NCBI GenBank assembly: GCA_963833575.1
Contig: CAWHXY010000006.1
Location: 288,861-352,860 of the forward strand
Direction of reading: 5' to 3'
From: Candidatus Bathyarchaeota archaeon
Lineage (GTDB): Archaea > Thermoproteota > Bathyarchaeia > Bathyarchaeales > Bathycorpusculaceae
Length of the DNA stretch: 64,000 bases
Made by a program: the position numbers and the translations under genes. Positions 30,355 through 50,235 of this stretch are shown here, piece by piece (position 1 is the stretch's first letter; every line of letters begins with the position of its first letter). Below the pieces are notes generated by a model that did not search any database, was not told where the DNA came from, and worked only from the letters and a program-made list of their open reading frames with translations.

Positions 30355-30912
30355 TTAAAGGTAAATGTTAAGTGTCTTGCTTCTCTGCAGCAATGCAATC
30401 ACGATTGCACAAATTATGATGCTTGGCACCATATAGGTTGCGTTGTATATTGCTGAGTAAAGGACTGGGCTCATGCCGGCTGGTGCATATTGGGGAAAAT
30501 AGATGACTCCTGAAACGAAATGAGATAGGAAACGGCCTGTCCCTCCAACAACGACGCCGACAATTGAGCCAACGGCGCCAAGGCTTCTGAAGAATCCAGC
30601 AAGTCCAACGCAGGCAAATGCCAGGGGGTAATCAAGGATGAATTGAGCAGGATTAACAACGAAAGGCTCGATTGCAAGGTCAACTACGCCAAGCACGATT
30701 CCTGCAAATATACCGATTTTAGGTCCCCGCCTTAACGCAAGCCAAAAGATAGGCACCATTCCAAGGTTAATGGATCCACCTTGTGGAAGACCAAAGAAGG
30801 AGTGACTAATTAGAGCCAATGCCCCTGCCATAGCGACAAATATTATTATTTCTGCTAGTATCTTGGTTGGAAAAATATTATTGTTTTCAGTTTCTATATT
30901 AGGTTGTTTCAC
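30355..30912 (-). CDS. thiT: Energy-coupled thiamine transporter S component ThiT
   Basis: PQGGSI, LRRG, QFILDY, HFVSGVIYF, YSAIYN. True start is GTG at 30912; the ORF-track ATG at 30951 lies inside the riboswitch. Confidence 0.9.
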   Translation of the reverse strand: MKQPNIETENNNIFPTKILAEIIIFVAMAGALALISHSFFGLPQGGSINLGMVPIFWLALRRGPKIGIFAGIVLGVVDLAIEPFVVNPAQFILDYPLAFACVGLAGFFRSLGAVGSIVGVVVGGTGRFLSHFVSGVIYFPQYAPAGMSPVLYSAIYNATYMVPSIIICAIVIALLQRSKTLNIYL

Positions 30913-30915
30913 GTT

Positions 30916-31007
30916 TTTTCCCTCCGCCAGTATTACCTGGTTCAGGTTCATTGGGTCGACAGCACTTAGCTGTCCTCTCAGCCGGGTCTTTCCCAGCTCC
31001 CCGAATT
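30916..31007 (-). ncRNA. TPP (THI-box) riboswitch
   Basis: Minus strand reads TTCGGGGAGCTGGGAAAGACCCGGCTGAGAGGACAGCTAAGTGCTGTCGACCCAATGAACCTGAACCAGGTAATACTGGCGGAGGGAAA. It contains the TPP hallmarks GGGG..GCUGAGA..ACCC..GAACCUGA..GGUAAUAC..GCGGAGGGAA and lies directly upstream of thiT. Confidence 0.93.
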
Positions 31008-31260
31008 ACCTTAATAAAATACAACGTGGAAGTTGTTTTATTTTAGGGTTGCGAAAGACTTGCACTTAGCAAGGTTCGTTAGTTAGGTTTGTAGAAGTTA
31101 AAATTTTTTGTTAAGAGAAGAAGAAACTCAAAGGAAGCAATCTTCCTACGCCTGCCAAGCTGTGCCCACATAAACCAAATGGTCAGAGCTTAATGAGGAT
31201 TAAATTTTGATCTTTCTCTCTCTAAAAAGTCTAATTAAACCGACTATTTTTGCTCCTATA

Positions 31261-31340
31261 CTCCTGTACCCTCTCAACACATCCACAACAACAAACACAA
31301 CAACACGACACCAACCATTCCATACGACACAACACATTGC
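31261..31340 (+). repeat. C/A-rich low-complexity tract
   Basis: caacacatccacaacaacaaacacaacaacacgacaccaacc...cgacacaacaca. Confidence 0.5.
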
Positions 31341-31436
31341 TAAAAAGTCTTAAGTCTGGAATGCACGAATTAGCCTAATGACAGCCATAAGAGCATACAG
31401 GTCTAACGTTGATAGAACTGAAAAGGAGAAATCAAA

Positions 31437-31706
31437 TTGAAACTATTTGATAAAGAGAAAAAACCTGAGCCAAAACCAACTGTCAAAGTTGATTCTGAAC
31501 ATGCCTTTTGTCCTAATTGTCATACTCAATTTGAATCGGTAGGTCACATCAAAGATTATCAACCTTTGATGTATGTAGCAGAAGCAGAATACTACATACT
31601 TCAATGTCCTAATTGTAAAACTGTACGATTCTGTGGAGAACTTGATGGTGTAATGAAATACGGAATAGTCAGAAAACTTGAGATTATCCAATCAGATAAC
31701 CCTTAA
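31437..31706 (+). CDS. Small zinc-finger protein
   Basis: CPNCH...CPNCK; GGAG SD upstream of the TTG start. Confidence 0.65.
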   Translation: MKLFDKEKKPEPKPTVKVDSEHAFCPNCHTQFESVGHIKDYQPLMYVAEAEYYILQCPNCKTVRFCGELDGVMKYGIVRKLEIIQSDNP

Positions 31707-31953
31707 AAAGAGCGAAAAAGGGTTGAAGCTGTAAGTTAAAAGTGGCTTTTTACCGAAAGCCTCGAATAGGTGCAAATTCTTAAAACTGCATGGATACAAC
31801 TTAAGGCTTTAAAGAGGGCAATTTATCATAAGTAGTAATTGTTTATACCTGCAGAAAGGTCTCTTAAACAGCCCTCTCGACAGAATACCTTGACTTTCGA
31901 CCTCTACATTCTGGAGCGGTCTTAGCACAAAGGATTACGTAAAAGGTGGAAAA

Positions 31954-32796
31954 ATGTCGTTTAAAACAAACGCTAAAAAAGAAACAAAGGGCCCCTACAT
32001 TAAAGATTTTTCTGACATAGCAAAAGATTATGAAAAAATATCCCTTGTACAGAAATCAGCTGCAGAAATTCTATTTGCTATAATCAATATTAACAAAAAC
32101 GAAGACGTTTTAGACCTGGGGTGTGGAACAGGAAATTTAACTAAAAGAATAAGGGATATAACTTCTGGAAAGATAGAAGGAATCGACTCCGCAGAAAACA
32201 TGATTGCTCAGGCTAAAGACAATTATGAAAAATTCAAAATACAATTTAAAGTGTTGAAAGCCAAGGATATTAATTATGCTCGTGAATTCGATGTGATATT
32301 TTGCAATTCAGCTTTTCAATGGGTAACTGATCCGGAAAAAGTTATCAAGAATTGCTATAGGACATTAAGAAAAGGCGGAAGGATAGGAATTCAGGCTCCT
32401 GCAACAAATGAGTATAGCCCAACATTTATCCAGGCGGTGGAAAGTGTCAAACAAAATCCCGCAACAAAAGAAACATTTTTGCATTTTAAATCGCCCTGGT
32501 TTTTTATGGAGACTGCTTCTGAATATAAGAAATTATTCGAGAAGGCTGGTTTTACTGTAGCGTTATCTGAAATTAATACTCTCAAATCAAAACATACACC
32601 AGAAGAAGCATTCAAGATATTTAGTTCTGGAGCAGCAGTTGGCTATCTTAATGAAGATTGTTATTCAGTAGATTTAGATGAACGCTATGTTTCAAGTTTT
32701 AATAAACTGGTGAAAAAATATTTCGCATCGCAGATAGATGAAGATGGTCTTGTTGAAGTAATATTTAACAGGATTTTTCTAATTGCTATAAAATAA
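31954..32796 (+). CDS. Class I SAM-dependent methyltransferase (Tam/BioC-like)
   Basis: VLDLGCGTG, GIDSAENM, FDVIFCNSAFQW, LRKGG. Confidence 0.9.
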   Translation: MSFKTNAKKETKGPYIKDFSDIAKDYEKISLVQKSAAEILFAIININKNEDVLDLGCGTGNLTKRIRDITSGKIEGIDSAENMIAQAKDNYEKFKIQFKVLKAKDINYAREFDVIFCNSAFQWVTDPEKVIKNCYRTLRKGGRIGIQAPATNEYSPTFIQAVESVKQNPATKETFLHFKSPWFFMETASEYKKLFEKAGFTVALSEINTLKSKHTPEEAFKIFSSGAAVGYLNEDCYSVDLDERYVSSFNKLVKKYFASQIDEDGLVEVIFNRIFLIAIK

Positions 32797-32808
32797 AGAT
32801 GGTTTAAG

Positions 32809-32821
32809 ATTAAATTTTAAT
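32809..32821 (+). repeat. Left target-site duplication ATTAAATTTTAAT
   Basis: The same 13-mer occurs at 42836-42848 in direct orientation; each copy abuts a TIR. Confidence 0.8.
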
Positions 32822-33095
32822 GCACACACACACACACTTGTTCTACGATTAGTGGATTAAGGAAAGAGGCAGTAACCAGATTAATTAGCGGTCAAACCTA
32901 AAGAGAGCACGCTCAGTAGTCTAATACCACGTAGAGAAAGGGTACAAGGGGTTTTTTTATGCTGAAAATAGCCTTCAGAGGGGCTAAGCGTAGTATAATT
33001 ATCATATATACGAGGGGTACTTTTTTACTATTTTTTTACCCCTCGTTGGGCTATTAGGGGTAAAAAATTAAGAGAAAAATTTACCCCTCGCAAAG
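32822..33095 (+). repeat. Left terminal inverted repeat (274 bp)
   Basis: GCACACACACACACACTTGTTCTACG...TTACCCCTCGCAAAG is the reverse complement of 42562-42835; no mismatch found by eye. Confidence 0.95.
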
Positions 33096-33119
33096 CCAAA
33101 ATATACTTTTTTCTTTTAT

Positions 33120-33608
33120 TCACGTCTTAACTGGAACTAACCCAAGACGATTTGCTGATTCTTCTACTGCCTTGCATCTCCTTTCTTGAATCTCAGCATC
33201 GGCAGGTTTTAGATAAGGTTTTATAAAAGACACGATTTCTTCCACAGTCTTTGAATGAACTTCATCATGTTTACAAGTTCCAAATTTATCGTAAGTATAA
33301 CAATGAGCAAGCTCGTGTACGATTTCAATAATTAATGGGAATTCGAGAAGATGCACCTCTCTCTTTTTCAAGTCATAAGTTCCAACGGTCTCAGCATATT
33401 CAAGAGGTTGCTCCAATGTTCCATGACCATACCCAACTGTAAAATTGATTCCAAATTTTATTTTAATTAATTTTACTAAATCATGTCCTTCACGCCAATT
33501 AACTGCATAACAAAGTTCTGGAAATTTATTATGTTCTAATCTGTAATATCCAGATTCTAATGCTTTTTGATTCTCATATTCAATCTCATTATTTTCCATT
33601 TTACTCAC
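33120..33608 (-). CDS. Zincin-like HExxH metallopeptidase domain protein (SprT-like), element cargo
   Basis: IVHELAH motif followed by a third His (KHDEVH). Confidence 0.6.
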   Translation of the reverse strand: MSKMENNEIEYENQKALESGYYRLEHNKFPELCYAVNWREGHDLVKLIKIKFGINFTVGYGHGTLEQPLEYAETVGTYDLKKREVHLLEFPLIIEIVHELAHCYTYDKFGTCKHDEVHSKTVEEIVSFIKPYLKPADAEIQERRCKAVEESANRLGLVPVKT

Positions 33609-33742
33609 TTTCTATTGAAGCTACATTAATTTGCAATTTGCTTGTCTGTTATTATTTCTTAGTCATTAGTCAGTTGTCTTGGTTAATTAAATTTTGACTC
33701 ATACAATAACTCTTCGTTTTTGTGGCTAAAGGATTACAAAGT

Positions 33743-33801
33743 GGTCAAACCTAAAAGAGAATACGATCGGCAGTTACATATCTGGTAAGAGAAAAGGGTA
33801 C
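33743..33801 (+). repeat. Degenerate internal copy of TIR segment 32890-32945
   Basis: GGTCAAACCTAAAAGAGA...AGAGAAAAGGGTAC versus TIR GGTCAAACCTAAAGAGAG...AGAGAAAGGGTAC. Confidence 0.75.
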
Positions 33802-33818
33802 GGATGTTCAATTCTTAC

Positions 33819-34862
33819 TTAAATTTCTTTGATAAATTCCTTTTCGTCCAAGGCAAAGTTGGCAACAAGTTTTCGCCTTATCAAACGAACCCAATTATAA
33901 TACTTGTCTCTTCTCCAATTAAAGAGAAGCCATCGTGAAAACTTTGCTTGAAAGGTTATCTCAAAATCAGATGTAAAGAAATTTTCCTTATTATAATTAT
34001 TGTTTTCTTTAGTAAATATTCCATATGGCAAACCCATGTTAACGCCATGTTTTTGAATCGAGATAACTAACTTAAAGTAGGTATGATGAAAGTGGGTTTC
34101 TCTTGAGAATTTCTTTTGCAACGTTGAAATTTGTGTTCCTTTTGGGGTAACAATAACCCATCTATCAGGTTTGTATAAATAAAATAAAGTAGTTTTTCCA
34201 AGAAAATGCTCAATAATATCGTTATTTTTCAATATAGGTTTCAAGTTTTTGCATTCAAGATTTTTTAAACTAAATAAATCTATGAACTCTTTATCATCTT
34301 TTTGAAAGCGAAAAATAGTTGGGTCGTAACTGTAAATATTGTTTTCTACACCAAGACGGTCTGGATTTGTTGTGTATCCAAAATACTCATCTTTATTCGA
34401 AGCCCAAAAAAATTCATATCCTGAAAGAGTATTAAACAAAACATATTCCGCAAAATCGAACTCAATTTTATCATACGTAAAATCATGGAGCCTTGAAAGA
34501 ATTTGTTGAGAGTAACTCGATTTATCTGTAGATAACGCTTCCCAAAAAAGCGACGCATATTGAACCGCAAACGGGGAAAATTTTGAAAGGTGCAATCGGT
34601 TCTTAGTTTTATCAACCAAAATGTTCGTGTAGATTATAGTCTTAATTTTTTCTTCAGGATATACAATTATGTAGATAGAAACAAACGTAAGAATAATTAA
34701 TGGTATTATTAGTAAAAAACCAATTGAAAAACCGTAAAAATAGAAATTTGCTAAATAAGAAGCAACTATGTTAGAAATTAATCCTATTAAGATAACAACA
34801 ACAATTAACTGCATTATCTCTTTTTGTTTTATCGAAATTGTTGGTTCCAATTCTAAGTTCAA
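33819..34862 (-). CDS. Hypothetical protein with two N-terminal TM helices, element cargo
   Basis: 347-aa AT-rich ORF; no motif recognised. Confidence 0.7.
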   Translation of the reverse strand: MNLELEPTISIKQKEIMQLIVVVILIGLISNIVASYLANFYFYGFSIGFLLIIPLIILTFVSIYIIVYPEEKIKTIIYTNILVDKTKNRLHLSKFSPFAVQYASLFWEALSTDKSSYSQQILSRLHDFTYDKIEFDFAEYVLFNTLSGYEFFWASNKDEYFGYTTNPDRLGVENNIYSYDPTIFRFQKDDKEFIDLFSLKNLECKNLKPILKNNDIIEHFLGKTTLFYLYKPDRWVIVTPKGTQISTLQKKFSRETHFHHTYFKLVISIQKHGVNMGLPYGIFTKENNNYNKENFFTSDFEITFQAKFSRWLLFNWRRDKYYNWVRLIRRKLVANFALDEKEFIKEI

Positions 34863-34969
34863 CTTTCAGTACTTATTAGACCTGAGTAGTTTTTAAATCT
34901 GTGCAACATAGAAATCCTTAACATAGAAGACCTAAAAAGTTAGTTGTGTCCTATTTACATGAGTAGAAA

Positions 34970-35512
34970 ATGAATAAAAAAACTACTGCACAAGTTCTGA
35001 TTTGTTTAGCTATTATAATTCTTTTGTCAATTAGTCTCCTTGTCTTTATTTTTCCTAAATCAATAGGGATATCACAACAAGTGTTATCGCCCTCATCAAC
35101 TCCGTCATCAACTCCCTCATCAACACCTTCACCGACAACCGTGCCAATTAATGTATTTCCAAACCAAACCCAAAACATAGAGGTAAACTGCTTTAAAGTA
35201 CAAAATACCGCTGGTTATTATAACATAAATGTCACCGACCTAAGCGTGTGGCAATTAAATGTGGGAGATGTGCAACTGAGTGAATCAATTATTGATGCTG
35301 GTATTATACCTGGTCTGAATAGTCCACCGACCACTAATTTAGTTCCTCAAAGTTGTTTTACACTTAAACCAAATGAAACGGTTACACTTCTTTTCTCAAT
35401 CGACAAACTTACAACAACAATAACGAATCCTGTATCAGTAATTGTTCATTATTGGGTTGTTGATGGTGCTAATAGTTGTTATCAAGACTATGCGAGAGCA
35501 TTTAATCTATAA
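34970..35512 (+). CDS. Membrane-anchored secreted protein with SSTP linker repeats
   Basis: N-terminal TM/signal peptide, PSSTPSSTPSSTPSPT linker, beta-rich C-terminal domain. Confidence 0.7.
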   Translation: MNKKTTAQVLICLAIIILLSISLLVFIFPKSIGISQQVLSPSSTPSSTPSSTPSPTTVPINVFPNQTQNIEVNCFKVQNTAGYYNINVTDLSVWQLNVGDVQLSESIIDAGIIPGLNSPPTTNLVPQSCFTLKPNETVTLLFSIDKLTTTITNPVSVIVHYWVVDGANSCYQDYARAFNL

Positions 35513-35560
35513 CTTGTAACTTTGATAAGAAACTTATTTAGCATCCGAATCTAAAAAAAT

Positions 35561-36586
35561 TTATAGAGTAACTATTCGAGGATTCCACGCTTTTGATTCT
35601 CCCCTCAAATATTTAGCGAGTAGAAGAGCCTCTTCATTAATCAGTGTCTCTATCTCTTGCTGACTCCCTACCTTCATTCTCGGTATGCTAACTTTCGAGA
35701 GGAAATAATCGTTTAACTTGTTTGTAAACTCGTTAGATAAATCATCCTTCAGATATTGCCTTTTAGCTTTTTTGTTAGACCGCTTCTCAGTCTTGTAAGC
35801 GAAATCTCTTTTGTTAAGGTCTTTACAATATCCGATTATGAAGTCGTCAATCAAGTATCGGTACAATTCTTGGAAGTCACACGCCAAAGAAGGCTTACCG
35901 AACTGTAAGCTGTGCAGAAAGCCTAAGAATGGCTCTAACTTTGCCCTTAATAGGGCTATGTGGACTTTCCATCTTAGAATCTCGTAAGCTAAATTAAACG
36001 TATTATTCAAACCATCATAGGCTAAGAATGTCTTTCTACCTTGTGGTCTGATTTCGTTATCGAACATACCAAATATTTGGGAGAAATACTTTCGAGAATA
36101 TTTTGCCTCGTAGCACGTTAACATTCTTCTAAGAGTCTTTTCATCATCGGAATGAATAGCGTTAACTTCATCCCTAACGAACCCAATGGGCATTAATCCG
36201 TATTTCCTTAGAACTTTATCGTAGCCTTCAGCTTTAGCTATTACAAACTTCTTTGCAACCTCTTCGCCTATTCCATTCTTTAACGCTTCATACTGCATTA
36301 TCCTTGTTTTTACATGAGAATCATCATCGAGAGACTTCAAAATTGCTACTGGGTTCCCTTTCTGCGTAAGAATCAACACATCTATTCCAAAGTAACCGCA
36401 AGTCGCTAACGCTCCGCTACTTAGCATGTTCCCTGATGTTATCTTTATTTCCCCTATTTCTTTCTCGAAGAGGGGAAACAACGTTTCCTTCTTCTCTCTA
36501 TCTCTTAGCAATAAACTTCCGTGTTTAATTCCCAAGTAGTTTCCGTAACCACTCAGGTCGATTTTTAGTACTTTCGCTCCTTTCGT
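35561..36586 (-). CDS. cas1: Standalone Cas1 endonuclease (casposase)
   Basis: Catalytic E (YEAKYSRKYF), N..LNLAY, H (GFLH) and SLACDFQE. The frame extends upstream of TTG 36535 through the Cas1 N-terminal strand (KVLKIDLSGYGNYLG) to an ACG at 36586 preceded by GGGAG. Confidence 0.93.
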   Translation of the reverse strand, partial: TKGAKVLKIDLSGYGNYLGIKHGSLLLRDREKKETLFPLFEKEIGEIKITSGNMLSSGALATCGYFGIDVLILTQKGNPVAILKSLDDDSHVKTRIMQYEALKNGIGEEVAKKFVIAKAEGYDKVLRKYGLMPIGFVRDEVNAIHSDDEKTLRRMLTCYEAKYSRKYFSQIFGMFDNEIRPQGRKTFLAYDGLNNTFNLAYEILRWKVHIALLRAKLEPFLGFLHSLQFGKPSLACDFQELYRYLIDDFIIGYCKDLNKRDFAYKTEKRSNKKAKRQYLKDDLSNEFTNKLNDYFLSKVSIPRMKVGSQQEIETLINEEALLLAKYLRGESKAWNPRIVTL

Positions 36587-36741
36587 ATTTAGCTCCCTTC
36601 TACCTATATAGAAGGCGAAACGCTCTAAAAAGGCTTATTACGTAAAAAGGGGCAGTAATAAAGCTTTATTTTACTACGGAAACCTTTCTGCCAGCCTTTA
36701 GCTTTATCCGCTTGGATACTTTCCTTAGAAAGTAAAGATAA

Positions 36742-37056
36742 TTAGATATTTCGGTAGTGCCATCCGCCAGCTTGACCTCTGTTCCTTAGCGTAGTATGCT
36801 TCCATTTTAAATCTAAGGTGCTTCGGAACTTTCTAAATCTGCATTGAGTAGGATTAGAGAGCAGATTAGGGCATTTTACTTCTTCACAGAATTTTACCTT
36901 AATGAACTCGCCATCTAACATTTTATTACAGCACGGATGCCCCTTTCTATGCAGAGGGACACGTATCTGCATGTTCTCTCTCATTTTCTTCCTAATCTCT
37001 ATCGGAACATCGTTGAATGGATCGTTCAAGTCTATATTGTCACTTTCACTTGACAA
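36742..37056 (-). CDS. Cys-rich hypothetical protein (element)
   Basis: TTG start with GGTGA SD; HPCC...C..C..C. Confidence 0.55.
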   Translation of the reverse strand: MSSESDNIDLNDPFNDVPIEIRKKMRENMQIRVPLHRKGHPCCNKMLDGEFIKVKFCEEVKCPNLLSNPTQCRFRKFRSTLDLKWKHTTLRNRGQAGGWHYRNI

Positions 37057-37068
37057 ACAATCACCTTC

Positions 37069-37263
37069 CTATTTTATCTCTTCGAGAACCTTGTTTGAAA
37101 TTTTAGTTTTAGATAATCTCGTGGCTTTCTTTTTACAGAGAATACACTTTCTTCTTTTGTCAAGATTGGCTACGTTTCTATATCCTTTGACAGGATTATG
37201 GATAACGTAGAAAGCTAATTTCTCGAAATGCTCAGCACATAAACCAATTTTTATTTTGTTCAA
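37069..37263 (-). CDS. Small zinc-finger protein (element)
   Basis: LCAEH...CILC; GAGG SD upstream. Confidence 0.55.
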   Translation of the reverse strand: MNKIKIGLCAEHFEKLAFYVIHNPVKGYRNVANLDKRRKCILCKKKATRLSKTKISNKVLEEIK

Positions 37264-37575
37264 TTTATTCTTCCTCTTGTGTCACGCACTAACAGGCAGA
37301 ACTACATCTGCAAGGTGATGTAGCTGTATCAGAAACCCTCTCTACTTACCTGGCTAATGATTCGTGCAAATTATTTTAGAATATAAAAAAAGGGAAAATT
37401 GGTATGCTGTTCGCTACGACTGAAGCCTTTCTAAAACTTTCTTAGCTTTCGTTGTCAGAGTTTCTTCTTAGGATGGAATGCAGTCCACGATTTTGGGATA
37501 GGCGTTTGAGGAGAAGCGTTTTGTCCAAGAGACGTTTTTTCTCTACTCTTTCCCATTTTGTTAATCACTTCCTCT

Positions 37576-37839
37576 TTAGGCATTGTTACTTGTGATATCA
37601 AGTAACCGTCTGTTGCTTTGGATAGCTCCGAAACGTTTCTCTATTCTTCCGCAGTTTGTTTCTTCTACTCTGCTAAAATCGATTTTCTGTAGCACTACGA
37701 TGTAGACTTTTCCGAATTTATCTTGCGTAGCTTTCACTCTTGCTCCATAAACTGTGATTTCAGAAATCTTGTCATTACGTTCACTGAACTTGATGACCTC
37801 TTCGTGTGCTTTGTTTTGTACAAAAACTTTTCTAATCAG
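37576..37839 (-). CDS. Hypothetical 87-aa protein, CTG start overlapping the upstream stop (CTGA)
   Basis: Manual translation LIRKVFVQNKAHEEVIKF...DITSNNA*; open for 88 codons; GGAG SD; missed by the ORF track. Confidence 0.55.
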   Translation of the reverse strand: MIRKVFVQNKAHEEVIKFSERNDKISEITVYGARVKATQDKFGKVYIVVLQKIDFSRVEETNCGRIEKRFGAIQSNRRLLDITSNNA

Positions 37840-38237
37840 TCGCTCTCTCCTTTTTTAGGCTTTGTCGTAATCCTGATTTTGATTCTATCGAATAGTGACG
37901 GTTTCTGATTCTGAGGTACTGGAAACGAATCGTTTGGCAAAGTACCTTCAAGGCTCCCTTCGTATGGTGCGTTAATATTAGTATCCTTGTCTTTTTCGAG
38001 TTGTTCAAGTTGTTCCTTAGAAAGTTTGTAAGCTCCGATGTCTAATCCGTATAATCCTTGCTCTCTTTCGGATTCAATATCTTCGATGTTGTCAAGCATA
38101 CGATTCTTTTCTGCTTCGGTATTTAATGGAGAAATTCTTGGTAGATTATTCTTTAGAGCCTGATGGGAATGTGTAGGAATAAAGAAATGTTGCCCTTTTT
38201 GATTTCTCGAACCTTTCTTTCTTGTTCTCCATGGCAT
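37836..38237 (-). CDS. Hypothetical protein (element)
   Basis: ATG with GGAGTGA SD; basic N-terminus MPWRTRKKG. Confidence 0.7.
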   Translation of the reverse strand: MPWRTRKKGSRNQKGQHFFIPTHSHQALKNNLPRISPLNTEAEKNRMLDNIEDIESEREQGLYGLDIGAYKLSKEQLEQLEKDKDTNINAPYEGSLEGTLPNDSFPVPQNQKPSLFDRIKIRITTKPKKGESD

Positions 38238-38254
38238 GAATTATCACTCCTTTT

Positions 38255-38437
38255 TTAGGTTAAAATATCAACTATTCTGACTTCACCGACTGTCTGTAGA
38301 GCTTCGGTTGCGGTACGTTTCCATCGTAGCTTAAACATTTCAAAATCATTTACTAATTCTACTGGACTTTGAACCTTAATTTTAGCTACAACAAAAATGT
38401 GCCTTGTTTCTGTCAGTTCTTTATTTTGTTTCTCCAT
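38255..38437 (-). CDS. Hypothetical protein (element)
   Basis: ATG with GGAAGGTGA SD, in a tightly packed operon. Confidence 0.6.
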   Translation of the reverse strand: MEKQNKELTETRHIFVVAKIKVQSPVELVNDFEMFKLRWKRTATEALQTVGEVRIVDILT

Positions 38438-38477
38438 GCGTAATCACCTTCCTGTTTAGTAATCCAAAATTCTATTC

Positions 38478-38603
38478 TCAAATTACAGTAACTTTTCCAC
38501 AATCCCTGCAAACAAAAGAATTGTATCGGCGTGCTTCAAAATCGTAATAGTTCTCCTTGAGTTCTAACGTATTTTTAGAATTACAAAATTTGCAGTCAAC
38601 CAT
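38478..38603 (-). CDS. 41-aa zinc-ribbon protein (element)
   Basis: Manual translation MVDCKFCNSK...FVCRDCGKVTVI*; below the ORF-track cutoff. Confidence 0.6.
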   Translation of the reverse strand: MVDCKFCNSKNTLELKENYYDFEARRYNSFVCRDCGKVTVI

Positions 38604-38604
38604 T

Positions 38605-38820
38605 CTACTCTTCACCTTCCTCACTTTCATCTTCGTCATCTTCGTTTCGTTGCACTTTCTTCTTAGAGTAGGTTATGAGCACTTGACCTTTAATATTCAA
38701 AGATTCAATGCTTAGAATGTAGTGCTTGTCTAACTTCTTGAGAACTTCATTTAGTTCGTCTTCATCTGGATTGTTCAGTACCTTCGCTCTAACAATCGTT
38801 TTATCTCCCATTAAAATCAC
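38605..38820 (-). CDS. Hypothetical protein with acidic tail (element)
   Basis: GAGGTGA SD upstream of the internal ATG; C-terminal EDDEDESEEGEE. Confidence 0.6.
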   Translation of the reverse strand: MILMGDKTIVRAKVLNNPDEDELNEVLKKLDKHYILSIESLNIKGQVLITYSKKKVQRNEDDEDESEEGEE

Positions 38821-38832
38821 CTCACTCTTTTG

Positions 38833-39438
38833 TTAGTTACTTTCTTGTAACCAAGATTCGCCTAAGCCTTCGCAGGTATTTTTATGTTTAATGTAGGCGA
38901 CAATTCCCGTCATGTCTCCGTTGTTATAAAACCGAATTATTTCTGGTGGCGGAATTTTTTCGTTCTTAGAGTTAACTCGGATTGTTATTGTGCCGAAATC
39001 CCTTAACTTCGCAAAACTTCTGTTTATTATGCCTAATTTTTTTGTTTCGTTTATGTGCCACTGAATTTCTTTCCAAGTTAAAGGCTTACCAAATATTATG
39101 CAATAGTTCCCTAACCTATTCCCGAAAAGGTCAGTCTTTGTACTTTCGGAAGTCCTTAATACCATTAGGCTTCCTAACTTGTAGAACTCTGCGTATTCTT
39201 TAGCGAAGTCTAAAACGTAATATTCTATGAGGTCGTCAACGTCTAACATTAAGAAATTGCTTGAAGTAAATCCTAAGACTACGTTTCCTTCTGGCGTTGT
39301 ATCTTCGATAGCCTTGTTTCCAGTAAAATCTGCTTGATACCCTTTAGGTTCGCTACAGAAAAACTCTTGTTCCTTTCGTTTTTTCAGCTTAGCCTTATCG
39401 CCTAAGAGATTTAATTGTACGTCTTGGCTAACGCTCAT
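38833..39438 (-). CDS. Putative AEP/primpol-like protein (element)
   Basis: FLMLDVDD (hhhDhD), LRTS...GNYCIIF (motif II-like, His replaced by Cys), ITIRV...K. Similarity judged by eye only. Confidence 0.4.
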   Translation of the reverse strand: MSVSQDVQLNLLGDKAKLKKRKEQEFFCSEPKGYQADFTGNKAIEDTTPEGNVVLGFTSSNFLMLDVDDLIEYYVLDFAKEYAEFYKLGSLMVLRTSESTKTDLFGNRLGNYCIIFGKPLTWKEIQWHINETKKLGIINRSFAKLRDFGTITIRVNSKNEKIPPPEIIRFYNNGDMTGIVAYIKHKNTCEGLGESWLQESN

Positions 39439-39769
39439 ATACCATCCCTGGTTTGTAGAATTTAATTCGCTTAACCTTTATCCAAGGAGTACGCTGATGA
39501 AGCTCTCCAAAAGTGACTTCTTCACCGTTTTTAAGTAGCGGTATCATTTTGAAGTCTTTAATTCTGTTGCAGGTGAATCTAATCATCTTGTAATTCATTT
39601 TACCGCTTACACTGTTTGGGATTTTTACATGAAAGCTCTGACGCTTGCTGATTCCATTCTTCGTTTCGTAATTAACGTAGAACCTTGCGTACTGTTTCGG
39701 TCTGCCAATATGCCTTCGTAGATGAATAGGCAGCGGTCTAAGCTTTGGAACTTTTCTTCCTTCGCTCAT
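39428..39769 (-). CDS. Basic hypothetical protein (element)
   Basis: K/R-rich 113-aa ORF overlapping its neighbours; GAGGTG SD. Confidence 0.65.
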   Translation of the reverse strand: MSEGRKVPKLRPLPIHLRRHIGRPKQYARFYVNYETKNGISKRQSFHVKIPNSVSGKMNYKMIRFTCNRIKDFKMIPLLKNGEEVTFGELHQRTPWIKVKRIKFYKPGMVYER

Positions 39770-39941
39770 GTCTATGCACCTCTCTTTTTAGGTTAGATTC
39801 TTTTTTTGGCATAGTCCCTATAGGAACTAAATCGCCATCTTCTAAGGAAACATCCGAAGTGTCAAAAGGTGGCTTAGTCCTAATCTCGTTAGGCTTAGCG
39901 TATCTTCTGTTTCCGTCTTTGTCAATTATAATCCAACGCAT
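39738..39941 (-). CDS. Hypothetical protein (element)
   Basis: ATG with GGAG upstream, in operon. Confidence 0.55.
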   Translation of the reverse strand: MRWIIIDKDGNRRYAKPNEIRTKPPFDTSDVSLEDGDLVPIGTMPKKESNLKREVHRHERRKKSSKA

Positions 39942-40029
39942 AGCTTTCGCTAATCTCCTAATCGTTTTGTTTTCTAAAAAAACTCAGTTTGTTCTAATTT
40001 TTCTTTTTTGGGACTAAAGCGGTAAGTTC

Positions 40030-40974
40030 TCAGGCTTTCTTACCACATGAATCTCTCCACTTGTAGAACTGGTACGAATTTTGTAATGGATTCATTTTTA
40101 AATTGACCCAATTAGAAAGAAATCTCATCAATTCAATGTCTTCATCGTTAACGCTATCTCTGCCATCACGCAAAGCACTACACTTTGTCATTGTTCTAAT
40201 AATCTTAAACAGCCGTATCCCTTTAATTTCAAAATTCCTTAGTCTTTCGTTATACCCTCGCTTAATGTCCTGCGTAATTAAATATAGCTCTCTACCATAC
40301 TTCTCTGAAATTTTTATATCATAACGTTTTTTGAACTCATGAATTTTTATGTTTTTAACGAAATCTTTGGTATCTTTTTGCAAAATAAGAGAATCAAACA
40401 CTGAAGCGAGTACAGATTCAGGGACATCAAAACTAAAGACTAAAGGTCTTGAAAAGAATCCACCACGATACAGTTTAGCTTTGACCATTTTCTTTCCAAC
40501 AGTAAACATTCCAAGCGTGTTTATTGCGGCAATTATTCCCCCTCTTGCTCCTTTGTACTTTTTCATTTCATCAGGGAATATTGCGTAAGTACTTTCATTA
40601 GAAAGCCCTTCCTCTGTCAACGCATTTATGAACTCTATAGTTGACTCAATAGTATTCTCTTTGAATGAGAACATTGAATTGAAATCATAAACTATCGTTG
40701 TCGGAAGAATTTTAGGATTCTCGAATAGAAGCTTTATTTTCCCAGATATCAAATCCCGTTGGTAGCCATGAGCGGTGAATCTTCGCATAACTTGAATACT
40801 TTTACTATTGCAAGCGAACTTTTTTAGAGCCTCTGTCCTTCCAGATTCGGCTTCACTCAATAATAATAAGCTGACAGGTTTTTCGTTCTTTACGTAAACT
40901 GATAATGCCGCAAGTTCTATTGCGTCAAATACAGGTTCTAATCCAATTAATTCGGTTTTTTTCAAGTGTTTCAC
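40030..40974 (-). CDS. MCM-like AAA+ ATPase (putative helicase) of the element
   Basis: LLLLSEAESGRT (degenerate Walker A), IVYDF (Walker B), ALTEEG, IIAAIN (sensor 1), FFSRP (Arg finger), GIRLFKIIR..CSALRDGRDSVNDEDI (sensor-2 helix of the MCM/MoxR/chelatase clade). Confidence 0.65.
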   Translation of the reverse strand: MKHLKKTELIGLEPVFDAIELAALSVYVKNEKPVSLLLLSEAESGRTEALKKFACNSKSIQVMRRFTAHGYQRDLISGKIKLLFENPKILPTTIVYDFNSMFSFKENTIESTIEFINALTEEGLSNESTYAIFPDEMKKYKGARGGIIAAINTLGMFTVGKKMVKAKLYRGGFFSRPLVFSFDVPESVLASVFDSLILQKDTKDFVKNIKIHEFKKRYDIKISEKYGRELYLITQDIKRGYNERLRNFEIKGIRLFKIIRTMTKCSALRDGRDSVNDEDIELMRFLSNWVNLKMNPLQNSYQFYKWRDSCGKKA

Positions 40975-41036
40975 CTACTTTTAAGTTTTTTAAGAAATGG
41001 ATAATCCTGAGTTTTCGGGTTCTTCCGAATATCAAT

Positions 41037-41238
41037 TCAGCAGTTGTTCTTTAGAATCTGGCGTACTACTTTCGCTGGCACTATCACGTTATGGGTACAA
41101 GTTGGGCACTTGAACATTTTATCGCCTTTATTTTTATGATTACGCCACAGCCTTGGGTCTGGTGCCCACCTATAGCCACACTTTTCACTTCTGCACCTAA
41201 CATATACCTTTTTTTTCGTTTCTCTCGTTTTTCAGCAT
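41037..41238 (-). pseudogene. Zinc-ribbon gene frameshifted in an A8 tract
   Basis: GAGGAG SD and ATG at 41238. Removing one A from the A8 run (T8 at 41209-41216) fuses it to VYVRCRSEKCGYRW...FKCPTC...*. Confidence 0.55.
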
Positions 41239-41513
41239 CTCCTCTGTTTTTTATTTTATTTGTTTTTTCAAAACCCTCTCTGACTGTATTTTTTAGATTT
41301 AGTTAAAATTTGCTTGAGCCTCGCAAAGCTCCGAGAGCTACTTTCTCGTTCTCTTCTACCTTTACCATAGGCTTGCGGTTATTTAAACCTTTTCCCAAGG
41401 CGGAAATCGGAAATCCGCTAAGTTTTCTGCTTCTTTTCACCATTAAATCCTGAATAGTGACACAAATATTCTACACAAAAGCTAATGCACACTGACTCTA
41501 AGTAAAAATAGCG

Positions 41514-41987
41514 TTATACTGAGCTGACAACATTAGGAACTATGACAGTTATTCTTGCTTTGTGACCTATCAAATGTTTATCTACTGTTAGCTGAATTCT
41601 TCCGCAATGATAGAGCTTACCTTTAGATTTGACCTTGTGTTTTTTTATCCGTACTTCGTAAGAGTGAATCGTAAACTTTCCTTTCTGCTCTATATCGTGT
41701 TCTACTGTTTCTTTTAGCATTATTTCTTCTTTTGGTGATTCCCAAATAAATTGTGAATAATTCCTTTTCATGATTTCAAGGTTGTCTCGGTAAGTCCCTA
41801 AGTTGTCGAGTAAGTCTAACTCTATATACTCTTCAAACTCTAACTCTGGATTAAGTTTTCTGAAAAGCTTCTCAATCATGTGAATCTGCAATCCCCATGG
41901 CATTATTCTGTAATTCTTCTTGCTGTGTCTTCGCATAATTAAAGTAAATGTAAAAAGAAGTGTAAAAGTTTTACTAAAACTATTCAC
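41514..41987 (-). CDS. Hypothetical protein with C-terminal AbrB/DUF2080-like swapped-hairpin motif (element)
   Basis: GRIQLTVDKHLIGHKARITV; the likely start is the internal MRRHSKK. Confidence 0.5.
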   Translation of the reverse strand: MNSFSKTFTLLFTFTLIMRRHSKKNYRIMPWGLQIHMIEKLFRKLNPELEFEEYIELDLLDNLGTYRDNLEIMKRNYSQFIWESPKEEIMLKETVEHDIEQKGKFTIHSYEVRIKKHKVKSKGKLYHCGRIQLTVDKHLIGHKARITVIVPNVVSSV

Positions 41988-42050
41988 ACTAATTTAGAGT
42001 CTTACGCCTTAATTAAGCAAAGAACGTATTAGATTTATTGAGAAAGAAAG

Positions 42051-42518
42051 ATGTTCGATTTTGCATTTGCTGTTGCCGTTGCATTAATCGCTCCATTACT
42101 TGCAACACATTACTATTTTAAAGACAAAATTAAAAAAGAATTTGAAAAAAGGAAAAGCAAATATTCTGAGACTATGGCGAAAAATCAAGTTGACGGGTTC
42201 AAAGCTCTTATACAGAAGTATGGGACTTCTGAAATTCCGCCCTACGATAAGTTTGAAGAATATTACTGTGACCTTTACAAGAAACAATTTGAAGGATTAG
42301 ACGATATTACCGAAGCTCTAAGACTTGAGAATTTCCTAAATAATACCCTGTTCTTTTTCTTTAGTGCTATAGCTTTATTCTTGCTTGCAGGGATTTTCCC
42401 TTATGTTGCTACGTCGGATTTTACTCTTGCAGGTTTTTCCGTTCCTTCCATGATTGGCGGAGTAATAGCAACGATAATGGCATGTTTTAGAATCTACCAA
42501 ATTGAGAAGATATTATAG
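42051..42518 (+). CDS. Hypothetical membrane protein (3 TM), element cargo
   Basis: One N-terminal and two C-terminal hydrophobic helices. Confidence 0.7.
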   Translation: MFDFAFAVAVALIAPLLATHYYFKDKIKKEFEKRKSKYSETMAKNQVDGFKALIQKYGTSEIPPYDKFEEYYCDLYKKQFEGLDDITEALRLENFLNNTLFFFFSAIALFLLAGIFPYVATSDFTLAGFSVPSMIGGVIATIMACFRIYQIEKIL

Positions 42519-42561
42519 AACATGCCGTTTGGATTAGTTTCGGATAAAAGTGAAATTAGTC

Positions 42562-42835
42562 CTTTGCGAGGGGTAAATTTTTCTCTTAATTTTTTACCCC
42601 TAATAGCCCAACGAGGGGTAAAAAAATAGTAAAAAAGTACCCCTCGTATATATGATAATTATACTACGCTTAGCCCCTCTGAAGGCTATTTTCAGCATAA
42701 AAAAACCCCTTGTACCCTTTCTCTACGTGGTATTAGACTACTGAGCGTGCTCTCTTTAGGTTTGACCGCTAATTAATCTGGTTACTGCCTCTTTCCTTAA
42801 TCCACTAATCGTAGAACAAGTGTGTGTGTGTGTGC
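42562..42835 (-). repeat. Right terminal inverted repeat (274 bp)
   Basis: Reverse complement of 32822-33095. Confidence 0.95.
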
Positions 42836-42848
42836 ATTAAATTTTAAT
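42836..42848 (+). repeat. Right target-site duplication ATTAAATTTTAAT (shared with second element)
   Basis: Identical to 32809-32821. Confidence 0.8.
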
Positions 42849-42976
42849 GCACACACACATTTTCCAACGGTCAGTAGCTCAAGGAATTTCAGCGGCAAAA
42901 CGTAAACGCATAAAAGAATACTCACGCTCAATAGGAAAATAATGTACGTATAAACGCTAAGAGTACATTTCAATGT

Positions 42977-43013
42977 GTTCCAAAGTGGGAACGGTATGTT
43001 CCACGAATAGAAC
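42977..43013. promoter_or_regulatory. Two GTTC-N8-GAAC palindromes 21 bp apart (putative operator)
   Basis: GTTCCAAAGTGGGAAC (42977-42992) and GTTCCACGAATAGAAC (42998-43013), upstream of 43071. Confidence 0.4.
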
Positions 43014-43070
43014 TAAATATTCTGTTAACCAAGAAATTTGTCAAGGCAAATAAGAGCATAGGCGGAATTA

Positions 43071-44279
43071 TTGGCTGTGTCACATGAGGCTAAACAGCAA
43101 GTATTGAAGAAAAGTGAAGCGGTCAAATCAGGAACCTTTGTATTAGTCTTAACCCTTTTCTCTATTCTCTTAGCCGCCAATTCAGTTCATGCTATTGAAG
43201 TTACCGCCACAGTACCCGTAGGTTCAGCCCCAAATGCGGCAGTGTATGACTCTGGAAGGGGGGAAGTATTTGTTGCCAATGCTGGATCAAATAGTGTCTC
43301 TGTCATCTCCGATGCCAACAACTCTTTGATTGCAACTATTGCTTTGCCGTCTGATTCTCCGAGCCCAAGCGATATAGCCTATGATTCTATCACCGGAGAA
43401 ATATTCGTGGTGAATAATCCCGTCGACAATTTTTTTGCTAGCAGCACCATCTCGGTAATAACTGACACAACTAACAGCATTGTTACCACCATAAACTTGG
43501 GATTCAATAATGTTGTTGGAATTTGCTACGACTTGAACATGAGAGACATAGTTGTAGCCAGCCAAAACCCAGGCGGTCCAGTAGGTCCTGTAACTTTCAT
43601 TTCCGACAGCAGCTATAGCGTAGCGTCGACAGTCAATGTTGGAGGTCATCCTCAAGGGATAGTTTACGACTCAGACAAGAGAGAAATCTTCGTATCCACT
43701 GAAGGAGACACAAACTCTTGGGTCTCTGTAATTCCAGACTATTCAAACACTGTTATTGCAAATGTAACTGTTCAAAATGTTCCCATCGGGTTAGCTTATG
43801 ATTCTGGCAAAGGGGAAATATTTTTAGCAAGCGTAGGGACACCCGAACTTGTCAATCCTGAGTCGGGGGTTACTGTTATTTCAGACCAGACCAACACTGT
43901 GGTAGCATCTATTCCTATGTCTGAAGGTACGGTAAACTTGGCTTATGACAGTAAGCAAGGATTGATATTCGTCTGCCATGCTGGTGAAAACAATGTTGTT
44001 TCGGTAATATTGGACAGCAACAACTCTGTGATTGCGAATGTAACTGTAGAAAACTCTACACTGTGGGGTCTATGTTATGACTCTGCAAAAAGCGAAATAT
44101 TCGCAACGAATCCTTACAACGCGACAATTACGGTAATTTCTGACCAGTTGGCGACTACTGCCCCGACAACAACGCCATCTTCAACTCCTACCGTTCCAGA
44201 GTTTCCAACTTTGATAATTCTGCCATTTTTTGCTATTGTAATACTACTATCACTTGTTTCTAAGAAAATTAGAGATTAA
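43071..44279 (+). CDS. YVTN/YncE beta-propeller surface protein with PEF-CTERM sorting signal
   Basis: Seven YDS..GEIFV.N...VSVISD..N.V repeats, Thr/Pro linker, VPEFPT followed by TM and a basic tail. Confidence 0.88.
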   Translation: MAVSHEAKQQVLKKSEAVKSGTFVLVLTLFSILLAANSVHAIEVTATVPVGSAPNAAVYDSGRGEVFVANAGSNSVSVISDANNSLIATIALPSDSPSPSDIAYDSITGEIFVVNNPVDNFFASSTISVITDTTNSIVTTINLGFNNVVGICYDLNMRDIVVASQNPGGPVGPVTFISDSSYSVASTVNVGGHPQGIVYDSDKREIFVSTEGDTNSWVSVIPDYSNTVIANVTVQNVPIGLAYDSGKGEIFLASVGTPELVNPESGVTVISDQTNTVVASIPMSEGTVNLAYDSKQGLIFVCHAGENNVVSVILDSNNSVIANVTVENSTLWGLCYDSAKSEIFATNPYNATITVISDQLATTAPTTTPSSTPTVPEFPTLIILPFFAIVILLSLVSKKIRD

Positions 44280-44523
44280 CGATTCGGGGATTCCAAGTTT
44301 TTGTTTCTCCTCTAAAATATTAGCGAGCAATAGACCCTCTTCATTAATCAGCGTTTCTATCTCTTGCTGATTTCCTACCTTCATTCTCGGTAATCTAACT
44401 TTCGAGAGGAAATAATTGTACAGCTTATTTGTAAACTCGTTAGCCAAATAATGTTTCATATATTGTCGTTTAGCTTTTTTGTTAGACCGTTTCTGAGTCT
44501 TGTAAGCGAAATCCCTTTTTCAA
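44269..44523 (-). pseudogene. cas1: cas1 3'-terminal relic
   Basis: KRDFAYKTQKRSNKKAKRQYMKHYLANEFTNKLYNYFLSKVRLPRMKVGNQQEIETLINEE closely matches the C-terminus of the 35561 Cas1; 1-nt frameshift before YFRGETKTWNPRIVNL*. Confidence 0.9.
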
Positions 44524-44656
44524 AGGTGTATGTTTTCTTTCGCCTGTTTGGTTAGGAAAATTCCCAAAGCAGAAAGAGGGGTTTACTTCATTTGAGTGCG
44601 TAAGACTTAAACAGTTATTAGTCTTTAACCAAAACAAGTTTACGGAGTCACTAATC

Positions 44657-49841: not shown

Positions 49842-50235
49842 TTTAAAGGCACCGCTACACCCTTCAGTGGAAACAAGAGATAACATTTCTTAACATGCAC
49901 GTATATCGGTAGCTATTAAAAACAATATGGCGAACGTCGAAAAGGAATTTTTGCGTTAAAATTCTTTGAGCTGCCTATGCGAGTATGTATACGAAAAATG
50001 AAAATTGTTTAATGTTTAATTGAGCGCTATGACATTTTTATGTAAAATTCCCCCTATCGCATGGAGCACTATGGCACAATATATGAAGAAGAAAAGGCAT
50101 TTCTCGCCATGGGTTTTGCCGACTTCAAATTTCATTTTGTTTATACATATTTGTTCTTGTTATAATATCTTATTCTAAATCTGAATAAATCTTATATATC
50201 TAAACAAGAATAAACAATAGTGAGCGTGTAAAATT

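Follow-up and report, generated by a model that had tools for sequence, protein, structure and literature searches.

The window analysed here is a 64,000-nt stretch of contig CAWHXY010000006.1 from a Bathyarchaeia archaeon, and its positions 32809-42848 are a real element of approximately 10 kb that probably moves by means of its own Cas1. A casposon-type transposon belonging to a Bathyarchaeia-wide family is the best explanation for this DNA, with a probability of about 0.8. The element is bounded by perfect terminal inverted repeats (TIRs) and a duplicated target site (target-site duplication, TSD) of 13 bp, encodes a Cas1 that separates from the CRISPR-linked Cas1 of the same archaeal class, and lacks a family B DNA polymerase (PolB), as do nearly all of the related loci searched. 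It encodes two other proteins, a predicted MCM-type AAA+ core and a candidate archaeo-eukaryotic primase (AEP), which together may form a replication module. The original prediction, made from the sequence of the window, had proposed a polymerase-free lineage of Cas1-mobilised elements, probably in Bathyarchaeia. The source genome (2.75 Mb in 8 contigs, 94% complete) contains a single intact Cas1 and three genes for PolB, the latter all outside the window.

The ends of the element were first evident as two inverted arms of 287 nt (32809-33095 and 42562-42848), which a repeat finder run on the window reported as 100% complementary. The outer 13 nt of each arm form the near-palindrome ATTAAATTTTAAT, whose central base is identical on both sides, showing that the 13-mer is a direct rather than an inverted repeat. 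The TIR proper is thus the 274 nt at 32822-33095 and 42562-42835, between which there are zero mismatches. Both the perfect 274-bp TIRs and the 13-bp direct TSD of the original prediction were confirmed, the former by the repeat search and the latter by the shared central base. A chance origin of a 287-nt inverted repeat with one central mismatch is impossible. The direct repeat spans 24 nt in all (32809-32832 = 42836-42859), because the right flank restarts with GCACACACACA, the tip of an older copy. The inner part of the TIR (positions ~190-270; 33011-33092 of the window and its mirror) holds four TACCCCTCG/CGAGGGGTA copies in both orientations, which may be protein-binding sites or an origin. 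A similar arrangement of repeats is present at C4:331117-331190. The features on which the argument rests are the following:

32809..32821, no strand: left copy of the 13-bp TSD, ATTAAATTTTAAT (repeat and reading of the ends)
32822..33095, plus strand: left TIR, 274 nt, tip G(CA)7C (repeat and reading of the ends)
35561..36586, minus strand: Cas1-family putative casposase, conserved frame of 341 codons (PF01867, TIGR00287)
38833..39438, minus strand: 201-aa DxD protein, AEP-like (family alignment and structure model)
40030..40974, minus strand: 314-aa protein, predicted MCM-type AAA+ ATPase core (structure model)
42562..42835, minus strand: right TIR, 274 nt, exact reverse complement of the left TIR (repeat and reading of the ends)
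42836..42848, no strand: right copy of the 13-bp TSD (repeat and reading of the ends)

The Cas1 protein (35561-36535, minus strand, as the 324-aa open reading frame, ORF) matches PF01867 with an E value of 6.7e-36 and TIGR00287, the generic CRISPR Cas1 model by name, with 135 bits against a cut-off of 71.7. Its catalytic residues E143, H208, D220 and E223 (numbering of the 324-aa ORF) align with those of solved Cas1 structures and of the Methanosarcina mazei casposase 6opm, in agreement with the predicted stand-alone Cas1 with an E/H/D/E active site. Among solved structures, the best sequence matches are, nearly tied, a CRISPR Cas1 with an E value of 1.8e-10 (7cr6) and the M. mazei casposase with one of 2.8e-10 (6opm). 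PF01867 covers residues 3-262 and TIGR00287 reaches residue 315, leaving no room for an extra C-terminal domain in a Cas1 of 341 aa. From the conserved active site, this Cas1 would be expected to catalyse the integration of the element.

PolB was sought in several ways. Among the 16 element ORFs of at least 50 aa that were treated as genes, none matches Cas2, Cas4 or a DNA polymerase family, PolB included, in Pfam, PHROGs or NCBIfam, and no PF00136 or PF03175 match appeared in the element ORFs, even at an E value of 0.5 for the largest unassigned ORFs, which were re-scanned. The largest ORF inside the element is that of 347 aa at 33819-34862, the size given by the original prediction and borne out by the ORF list. 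Together with a Tandem Repeats Finder scan that revealed no CRISPR-like array in the 64-kb window, these searches also bear out the claim that neither cas2 nor a CRISPR array is present. The search was extended with tblastn to 39 related loci (659 kb) and the array in the window, using as four queries the three PolB proteins of the genome and the protein-primed PolB fragment of L081, a locus described below. Only one of the 39 loci, L102, gave a PolB match, and a Pfam scan of 121 ORFs of seven loci found no polymerase. The family is therefore mostly but not uniformly PolB-free. The proposal of a polymerase-free lineage thus stands in part: the element has no PolB by Pfam scans and by tblastn, and it is not the case that close relatives all carry one, but the proposal overlooked the AEP-like DxD protein, the MCM-type ATPase and the single member with a PolB.

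The relatives of the element define a family. A database search with the Cas1 returned 2037 homologues at E values of at most 0.001, the best 120 of which are 57-92% identical to it and mostly ~342 aa long. Among 19 related loci in species-representative genomes, 17 are titled Bathyarchaeia or Bathyarchaeota, one Aenigmatarchaeota and one uncultured archaeon, supporting the predicted Bathyarchaeia host. Some Cas1 match at E values of at most 1e-5, distant CRISPR Cas1 included, is present in 149 of 401 sampled Bathyarchaeia genomes, and a near full-length match of at least 250 bits in 30 of 401, counting the window's own genome; the lineage is thus common in this class. Several of these 30 genomes have three or more copies, and many C-terminal Cas1 fragments occur across the sample, two of them in the window's own genome.

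The 39 non-redundant family loci were taken with up to ~10 kb on each side of Cas1 (L119 and L124 were dropped as equal to L021 and L026); many are cut by contig ends, so that counts of partner genes are lower bounds. An inverted repeat spans Cas1 in 19 of the 39, which gives 20 elements with the one in the window, and by repeat span their sizes range from about 2.8 to 13 kb. Direct repeats beside complementary tips were found in 16 of the 20, with lengths of 13 nt (n = 9), 12 nt (n = 2), 14 nt (n = 1) and 15 nt (n = 4), the extra bases in the four 15-nt cases being readable as either TSD or TIR. No flanking direct repeat was found in L026, L107, L120 and L126. Most duplications resemble ATTAAATTTTAAT or its complement, an AT-rich near-palindrome, while ATTAATGCGTAAT, ATATAGGTTGAAT and ACTAAACTTTCGC are divergent. 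This variation between elements shows that the target, rather than the element, is the source of the duplicated sequence. The TIR tips also vary by element and consist of simple repeats: (CA)n, (CCCAAA)n, (CCCAA)n, (CT)n, poly-A and CCTCC. In an independent assembly (L109) the inverted repeat is perfect over 271 nt, and tandem neighbours that share one 13-mer were found at L013, L104, L107 and L121. Two related elements contain genes for Toll/interleukin-1 receptor (TIR)-domain proteins of the CAP12/Pycsar type (L013:4403-5215 and L021:2138-2794), suggesting that casposon-like elements carry defence cargo.

To place the Cas1 relative to CRISPR, a comparison set of 19 Bathyarchaeia loci was used whose Cas1 is 26-35% identical to that of the window. 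In 18 of these, Cas1 lies beside Csa1, Cas2 and/or Cas4, or beside Cas6b and a Cas8b-type gene, and CRISPR-like arrays were found in 5 of the 19 loci, compared with 0 of 48 family loci. At the remaining locus, L081:419-5133 (contig C92 of genome G124, 5.2 kb), Cas1 stands alone and a protein-primed PolB (PF03175, E 1.5e-11) lies 2.5 kb from it; this locus is a classical Bathyarchaeia casposon and the nearest outgroup of the family. An unrooted maximum-likelihood tree of 44 rows (LG+C20+F+G4) separates two groups with support of 100/100, the 18 CRISPR-linked Cas1 on the one hand and L081 with the 25 family rows on the other, and family monophyly is supported at 89/98. A larger quick tree with 53 family rows gave the same picture. 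The focal Cas1 thus does not nest within the CRISPR Cas1 of its own class, here 18 sampled sequences of subtypes I-A and I-B, and this is as far as the trees reach.

Recurrent partners of Cas1 were found by BLASTP among the ORFs and by hidden Markov models (HMMs) built from homologue alignments. The most frequent is the family of the 201-aa AEP-like protein, which occurs in 18 of the 39 loci, the 4-kb elements L019 and L026 included; the family of the 314-aa MCM-like protein was detected by HMM in 11. Genes of both families occur throughout the family tree, the earliest branches (L122, L123 and L109) not excepted. Neither of the window's two proteins has a significant Pfam match, and their assignment was based on structure models.

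The sequences of the 314-aa family contain a Walker A motif and, taken singly, gave only weak TniB and AAA-lid matches. There is no Pfam MCM match for this family, and a PDB profile search reached at best an E value of 0.24. The AlphaFold model (mean predicted local distance difference test score, pLDDT, 94.3) matches the MCM AAA+ domain in Foldseek with an E value of 1.3e-8, and VIA-align gives a Z score of 19.8 with a root-mean-square deviation of 3.4-3.6 Å over 268-273 of the 314 residues. The best 50 entries listed by VIA-align are all MCM proteins, with sequence identities of 13-17%. Residue 1 of the model aligns to residues ~290-330 onward of these chains; the model starts where the MCM AAA+ domain starts, indicating that the protein lacks the N-terminal OB/zinc domain. 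Based on this model, the 314-aa protein is predicted to be an MCM-type AAA+ core. A TniB/TnsC reading of this protein was also considered, since 32 of 50 family members match PF05621 at E values of at most 1 (best 2.3e-5). However, the window's protein has no such match and no TnsC or TniB chain was among the Foldseek and VIA-align matches listed; the reading was set aside, given that the best structural matches are all MCM.

A search of 1.84 billion representatives gave the 201-aa family only 72 relatives at E values of at most 0.001. Of the 45 aligned members, 44 have D66 and 44 have D68, and all have S97 and R154. The core of the model has pLDDT values above 90, and its best Foldseek matches are the PrimPol domain of African swine fever virus (ASFV) and RepB' (E 0.013-0.2). 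In the VIA search, which does not depend on Foldseek, most of the top matches are also AEP enzymes (PrimPols, RepB', the LigD polymerase domain and PriS), with Z scores of 5.0-5.7. One of 45 members matches the AEP-like Pfam family PF24387 (E 0.0072), and the best E value in a PDB profile search was 0.3. With moderate confidence, the model suggests that the 201-aa protein is AEP-like. That the two proteins serve in replication of the element is a reading we favour slightly over its opposite.

The position of the element in its genome was examined by searching both flanks against 40 relatives. Conservation ends at ~31004 on the left and resumes at ~44548-44656 on the right, just before valS (44657). 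The conserved left border of this insertion hot spot is a thiamine pyrophosphate (TPP) riboswitch (RF00059, 62.3 bits; 30902-31013, minus strand), which lies upstream of a 198-aa gene at 30355-30951. The spacer between riboswitch and valS measures 72-80 bp in four congeners (G003, G013, G002 and G022), 84 bp in a fifth (G010) and 0.2-13 kb in other congeners. The short spacers of the five indicate that the whole 13.6 kb between 31014 and 44656 is inserted DNA. It comprises at least three layers, namely a decayed element on the left, the focal element and debris on the right, whose recognisable parts are as follows:

31199..31222, no strand: left end of the decayed element, a 13-mer resembling the target (ATTAAATTTTGAT) and then a (CT)n tip
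42849..43020, plus strand: decayed end of an older (CA)n-type element, GCACACACACA and then the TIR-like CAGCGGCAAAACGTAAAC (from sequence)
44259..44519, minus strand: cas1 3'-end fragment, 261 nt, debris of an older copy (85.6% DNA identity to 35550-35812)

The decayed (CT)n-tipped element (31199-32808) appears to contain a 280-aa S-adenosylmethionine (SAM) methyltransferase gene (31954-32796), which is absent from the short spacers of the five congeners and is thus perhaps cargo rather than a host gene. On the right, 42920-43017 is 89% identical to C4:326916-327016, a stretch that adjoins another array. A 402-aa repeat protein (43071-44279, plus strand), with one weak NHL repeat match and hydrophobic segments near both ends, sits between the tip of the older element and its cas1 tail and therefore lies within inserted DNA. 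Outside the hot spot, a long imperfect 15/30/63-nt tandem repeat (48600-49220) lies within a large minus-strand ORF (48108-49886).

The 13-mer itself recurs elsewhere. Exact ATTAAATTTTAAT occurs five times in the window's genome, always abutting simple-repeat tips, and the 13-mer with one or two mismatches stands next to such tips at a dozen further places. Its 11-mer core, TTAAAWTTTAA, is not enriched (9 in the genome versus 8.5 expected); the signal lies in the flanks of the copies. A 1-kb gene-poor insert at C4:334531-335542, with two exact ATTAAATTTTAAT copies around it and pyrimidine/purine-rich complementary tips, looks like a non-autonomous relative, and the (TG)nGC end of another element lies directly to its left.

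The remaining ORFs of the focal element have few recognisable relatives:

33120..33608, minus strand: 162-aa ORF with a HELAH (HExxH) motif, probably a passenger gene (sole match SprT-like, very weak, E 0.17)
33819..34862, minus strand: 347-aa ORF, hydrophobic N-terminal part (no match in Pfam, PHROGs or NCBIfam)
34970..35512, plus strand: 180-aa ORF, hydrophobic N-terminus and Ser/Thr/Pro repeat (tandem 12-mer at 35090-35124; no family match)
36742..37263, minus strand: pair of small Cys-rich ORFs of 104 and 64 aa (both in L012, 62% and 88% identity)
37836..38820, minus strand: four small ORFs, 133, 60, 53 and 71 aa (ORF list, Pfam, BLASTP); the 53-aa ORF is zinc-ribbon-like (weak Pfam match) and the 71-aa ORF is common to L013
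39428..39941, minus strand: ORFs of 113 and 67 aa, flanked by the AEP-like and MCM-like genes (order kept in L013, L025 and L023)
41514..42518, both strands: 157-aa ORF (minus) and 155-aa hydrophobic ORF (plus) (no family match)

These observations lead us to propose the following mechanism. The casposase would link the 3' ends of both TIRs to target strands at positions 13 bp apart, the target being an AT-rich near-palindrome with a consensus of about ATTAAATTTTAAT, and gap repair would then duplicate the 13 bp. Each insertion would thereby regenerate the target on both sides, so that later copies could enter next to existing ones, and arrays would form. The stretch of 13.6 kb between riboswitch and valS would be such an array, composed of a decayed (CT)n element, the intact (CA)n focal element and older (CA)n debris with a cas1 tail. 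For replication, the MCM-type helicase core and the AEP-like protein would replace PolB by opening and priming the element DNA, and a host polymerase would perform the bulk of the synthesis.

Several observations weigh against this reading, some of them concerning the insertion itself. No transposition, excision or empty site was seen for the focal copy. The congener spacers, in which an empty site was sought, yielded none: the 13-mer is absent from the short spacers, where the nearest match is a TATA-like GTTATATTTTAGT (10 of 13 positions), and the original target at this locus was not recovered. The left junction was found in no public sequencing run, the best word share being 0.10 (peat and permafrost metagenomes). 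Contigs of four runs that were matched to 31000-45000 were uninformative: all that they cover, in short pieces, is the methyltransferase gene, the right flank and valS. One run contig of 151 nt loses its match exactly at 32821|32822 and is too short for use. Other points concern the competence of the copy. Homologues of the Cas1 start with MKG(S/T)KVL, whereas the frame in the window reads TKGAKVL: where they have ATG or GTG, it has ACG (36586-36584). The first ATG, GTG or TTG is the TTG at 36535, 17 codons downstream, which yields the 324-aa protein. The Walker A motif of the focal MCM-like protein is GRT, with R at a position that is K in 44 and R in 6 of 50 aligned members, the focal one included. 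The ACG and the substituted lysine suggest that the focal copy may be impaired or not fully autonomous, perhaps no longer so. Perfect TIRs argue for a young insertion, so the predicted recent activity fits the ends of the element, but the ACG at the Cas1 start position weakens that claim. As to the replication module, the MCM-like gene was found in just 11 of 39 loci, and L019 and L026, elements of 4 kb, lack it. The AEP assignment is weak, its Z scores of 5-6 lying below the tool's caution line of 8 and its Foldseek E values at 0.013-0.2, and the aligned family has neither a conserved histidine nor a third acidic residue. Finally, the trees are unrooted, have long branches and comprise neither casposase families 2-4 nor CRISPR types other than I-A and I-B.

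The family member with a PolB is L102, where cas1 is followed after a gap of 26 nt by a 634-aa PolB ORF (PF00136, E 2.5e-30), and whose Cas1 nests inside the family, in the same clade as the window's Cas1 (SH-aLRT, Shimodaira-Hasegawa-like approximate likelihood ratio test, 98). A GmrSD-type gene lies upstream of this cas1-PolB pair (L102:9461-12425, contig C6 of genome G232), around which TIRs were not found. Such proximity in the tree would be expected if the focal element were a deletion derivative of a PolB-carrying casposon, one that lost its polymerase recently and is helped in trans by complete relatives, and the protein-primed PolB 2.5 kb from Cas1 in the nearest outgroup L081 points the same way, as does the DNA pol B on one of six contigs in the relevant parts of a study of 'family 5' casposases (PMC9755687). 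However, 38 of the 39 related loci have no PolB in the available DNA, arguing that the focal element is not a simple deletion derivative, and its own genome has no second intact Cas1 and no element-borne PolB. AEP-like and MCM-like genes, moreover, occur across the family tree, and neither is present in the available DNA of L102, so that an exchange of modules fits better and a deletion derivative appears quite improbable. L102 would itself fit alternative replication modules within one family, a suggestion drawn from this one case.

A further explanation, which does not exclude the transposon reading, is an integrating plasmid or virus-like replicon that multiplies as an episome with the help of the MCM-like and AEP-like proteins, Cas1 serving it only for integration. 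Pairs of an MCM-type helicase and a primase-polymerase are typical of archaeal plasmid and provirus replication, and tyrosine recombinases are the integrases of other archaeal elements. The former counts for an episomal life, and the four iteron-like 9-mers of the inner TIR and the variable sizes and cargo of the family, the TIR-domain defence genes of L013 and L021 among it, are compatible with one. The Pfam, PHROGs and NCBIfam scans revealed no gene for capsids, packaging or conjugation, however, nor did the Cas1 query identify a relative in IMG/VR (an exact-pattern search of low sensitivity), and the multiple copies per genome, the gene-poor derivatives with the same ends and the tandem arrays are transposon-like; such a replicon is improbable. 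Last, there might be no mobile element at all, the Cas1 being an orphan of CRISPR adaptation or the inverted repeat an assembly artefact. This would agree with the NCBIfam match to the generic CRISPR Cas1 model and with the lack of a public run containing the junction. It is hardly credible given that cas2, cas4 and arrays are absent near the examined family copies, that the separation from CRISPR-linked Cas1 is 100/100 and that a TIR with a 13-bp TSD recurs in independent assemblies, such as the 271-nt perfect repeat of L109. A casposon-type transposon accordingly remains our preferred reading.

The CRISPR adaptation machinery has been proposed to descend from casposons. A broader, tentative view, which we hold at slightly less than even odds, is that casposons are not defined by PolB: a large Bathyarchaeia branch would have replaced PolB or never had it, using instead an MCM-type core and a minimal AEP, and would combine a 13-bp stagger at an AT-rich near-palindrome with regeneration of that site into repeat-insert-repeat arrays whose elements have simple-repeat tips. 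If this is true, such arrays would offer a natural parallel to the passage from transposon to CRISPR array, few known AEP enzymes would be smaller than the DxD protein, and the variation in the simple-repeat tips would stem from end priming or repair. With its perfect TIRs, exact TSD and flanks from a near-complete genome, the focal element is a clean, complete reference copy of a polymerase-lacking lineage. The lineage gains a defined target and a 13-bp stagger, as in the biochemically studied family 1 enzyme, and the element points to a different candidate replication module. Two questions are thereby made testable, namely what replicates a casposon without PolB and how target regeneration builds repeat-insert arrays.

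In the relevant parts of the papers, casposons were founded on the co-occurrence of cas1 and polB (PMC4046053), and a 2023 review describes them as cas1-polB islands of four families (PMC9939771). By the criteria of Krupovic et al. 2014, the focal element has the Cas1 catalytic residues, the lack of linkage to cas genes or CRISPR, and the TIRs with TSD, and lacks the element-encoded family B polymerase that makes an element 'self-synthesizing'. The statement in the original prediction that all described families pair Cas1 with PolB is nevertheless out of date. Salgado et al. 2022 proposed 'family 5' casposases from hot springs, comprising six Cas1-solo sequences in one clade near subtype I-A Cas1, with conserved catalytic residues, no helix-turn-helix (HTH), hypothetical neighbours and a DNA polymerase (pol B) in one of six contigs. 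TIRs were reported in 5 of the 10 hot-spring contigs examined there, and the authors suggest non-self-replicative transposons (relevant parts of PMC9755687).

To judge from those parts, the focal element resembles 'family 5' in its stand-alone archaeal (Thermoproteota) Cas1, the intact active site, the general lack of a polymerase and the lack of a C-terminal HTH. By eye, Cas1_938, _1200, _1219 and _1269 of PMC9755687 have long motifs in common with the window's Cas1, for example PSL(A/V)CDF.ELYRYLIDDF and E(T/S)LINEEA.LLAKYLR, and on this comparison the focal Cas1 probably belongs to 'family 5'. Three 9-residue motifs from its supplementary sequences were found in none of the proteins gathered up to then. 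We note two differences. The relevant parts of PMC9755687 contain no TSD, target motif, simple-repeat tips, helicase or primase-like genes, and that paper places its family next to I-A Cas1, whereas the unrooted trees here put the focal family on the side of the casposase linked to a protein-primed PolB. No casposon literature on Bathyarchaeia was found apart from one unrelated review, nor is this family treated in the titles or abstracts of the 33 papers listed of the 39 since 2023 that mention casposons, although supplements may hold more, and the MCM-like plus AEP-like module is not yet described for casposons in the literature searched.

Among the classical casposons, family 1 (NitAR1-C1 and relatives, Nitrososphaeria) is similar in several respects, as far as the pertinent sections of the papers go. 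Its hosts belong to the same phylum-level group in GTDB, its Cas1 is short and HTH-less, and the casposase of Ca. N. koreensis produces a 13-bp TSD, ATTGATAAAGAGT, in which A1, A11 and T13 are critical (PMC8464041); the focal TSD is also 13 bp long and has A1, A11 and T13. Site-specific reuse of the target and tandem insertions are shared as well (PMC6563490). In contrast, family 1 has a protein-primed PolB, conserved upstream genes and the 3' end of ef-2 as its target (PMC4046053, PMC8464041), whereas the focal element has no PolB, an intergenic AT-rich near-palindrome as its target, and MCM-like and AEP-like genes. Family 2 (AciBoo-C1 and the Methanosarcina mazei casposons) shares the Cas1 integrase, the TIRs, the TSD and tandem arrays, and differs in its RNA-primed-type PolB, HNH nuclease, HTH proteins, Cas1 with a C-terminal HTH, TSD of ~14 bp and tRNA-gene targets (pertinent sections of PMC8464041 and PMC4046053).

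Outside the casposons, the CRISPR adaptation modules of Bathyarchaeia (I-A-like with Csa1-Cas1-Cas2-Cas4; I-B linked to Cas6b) have the same Cas1 fold and catalytic residues, and an integration chemistry that likewise duplicates a short repeat. They differ from the focal element in their Cas1 identity of 26-33%, their cas neighbours, the arrays of some, and their position on the opposite side of the 100/100 branch. The MCM helicases of archaea and eukaryotes, like the MCM-like genes of archaeal plasmids and proviruses, are comparable to the focal protein through the AAA+ superposition, the focal protein being without the N-terminal domain. As polymerase-lacking casposons were already proposed in 2022 (PMC9755687), the focal element extends that kind.

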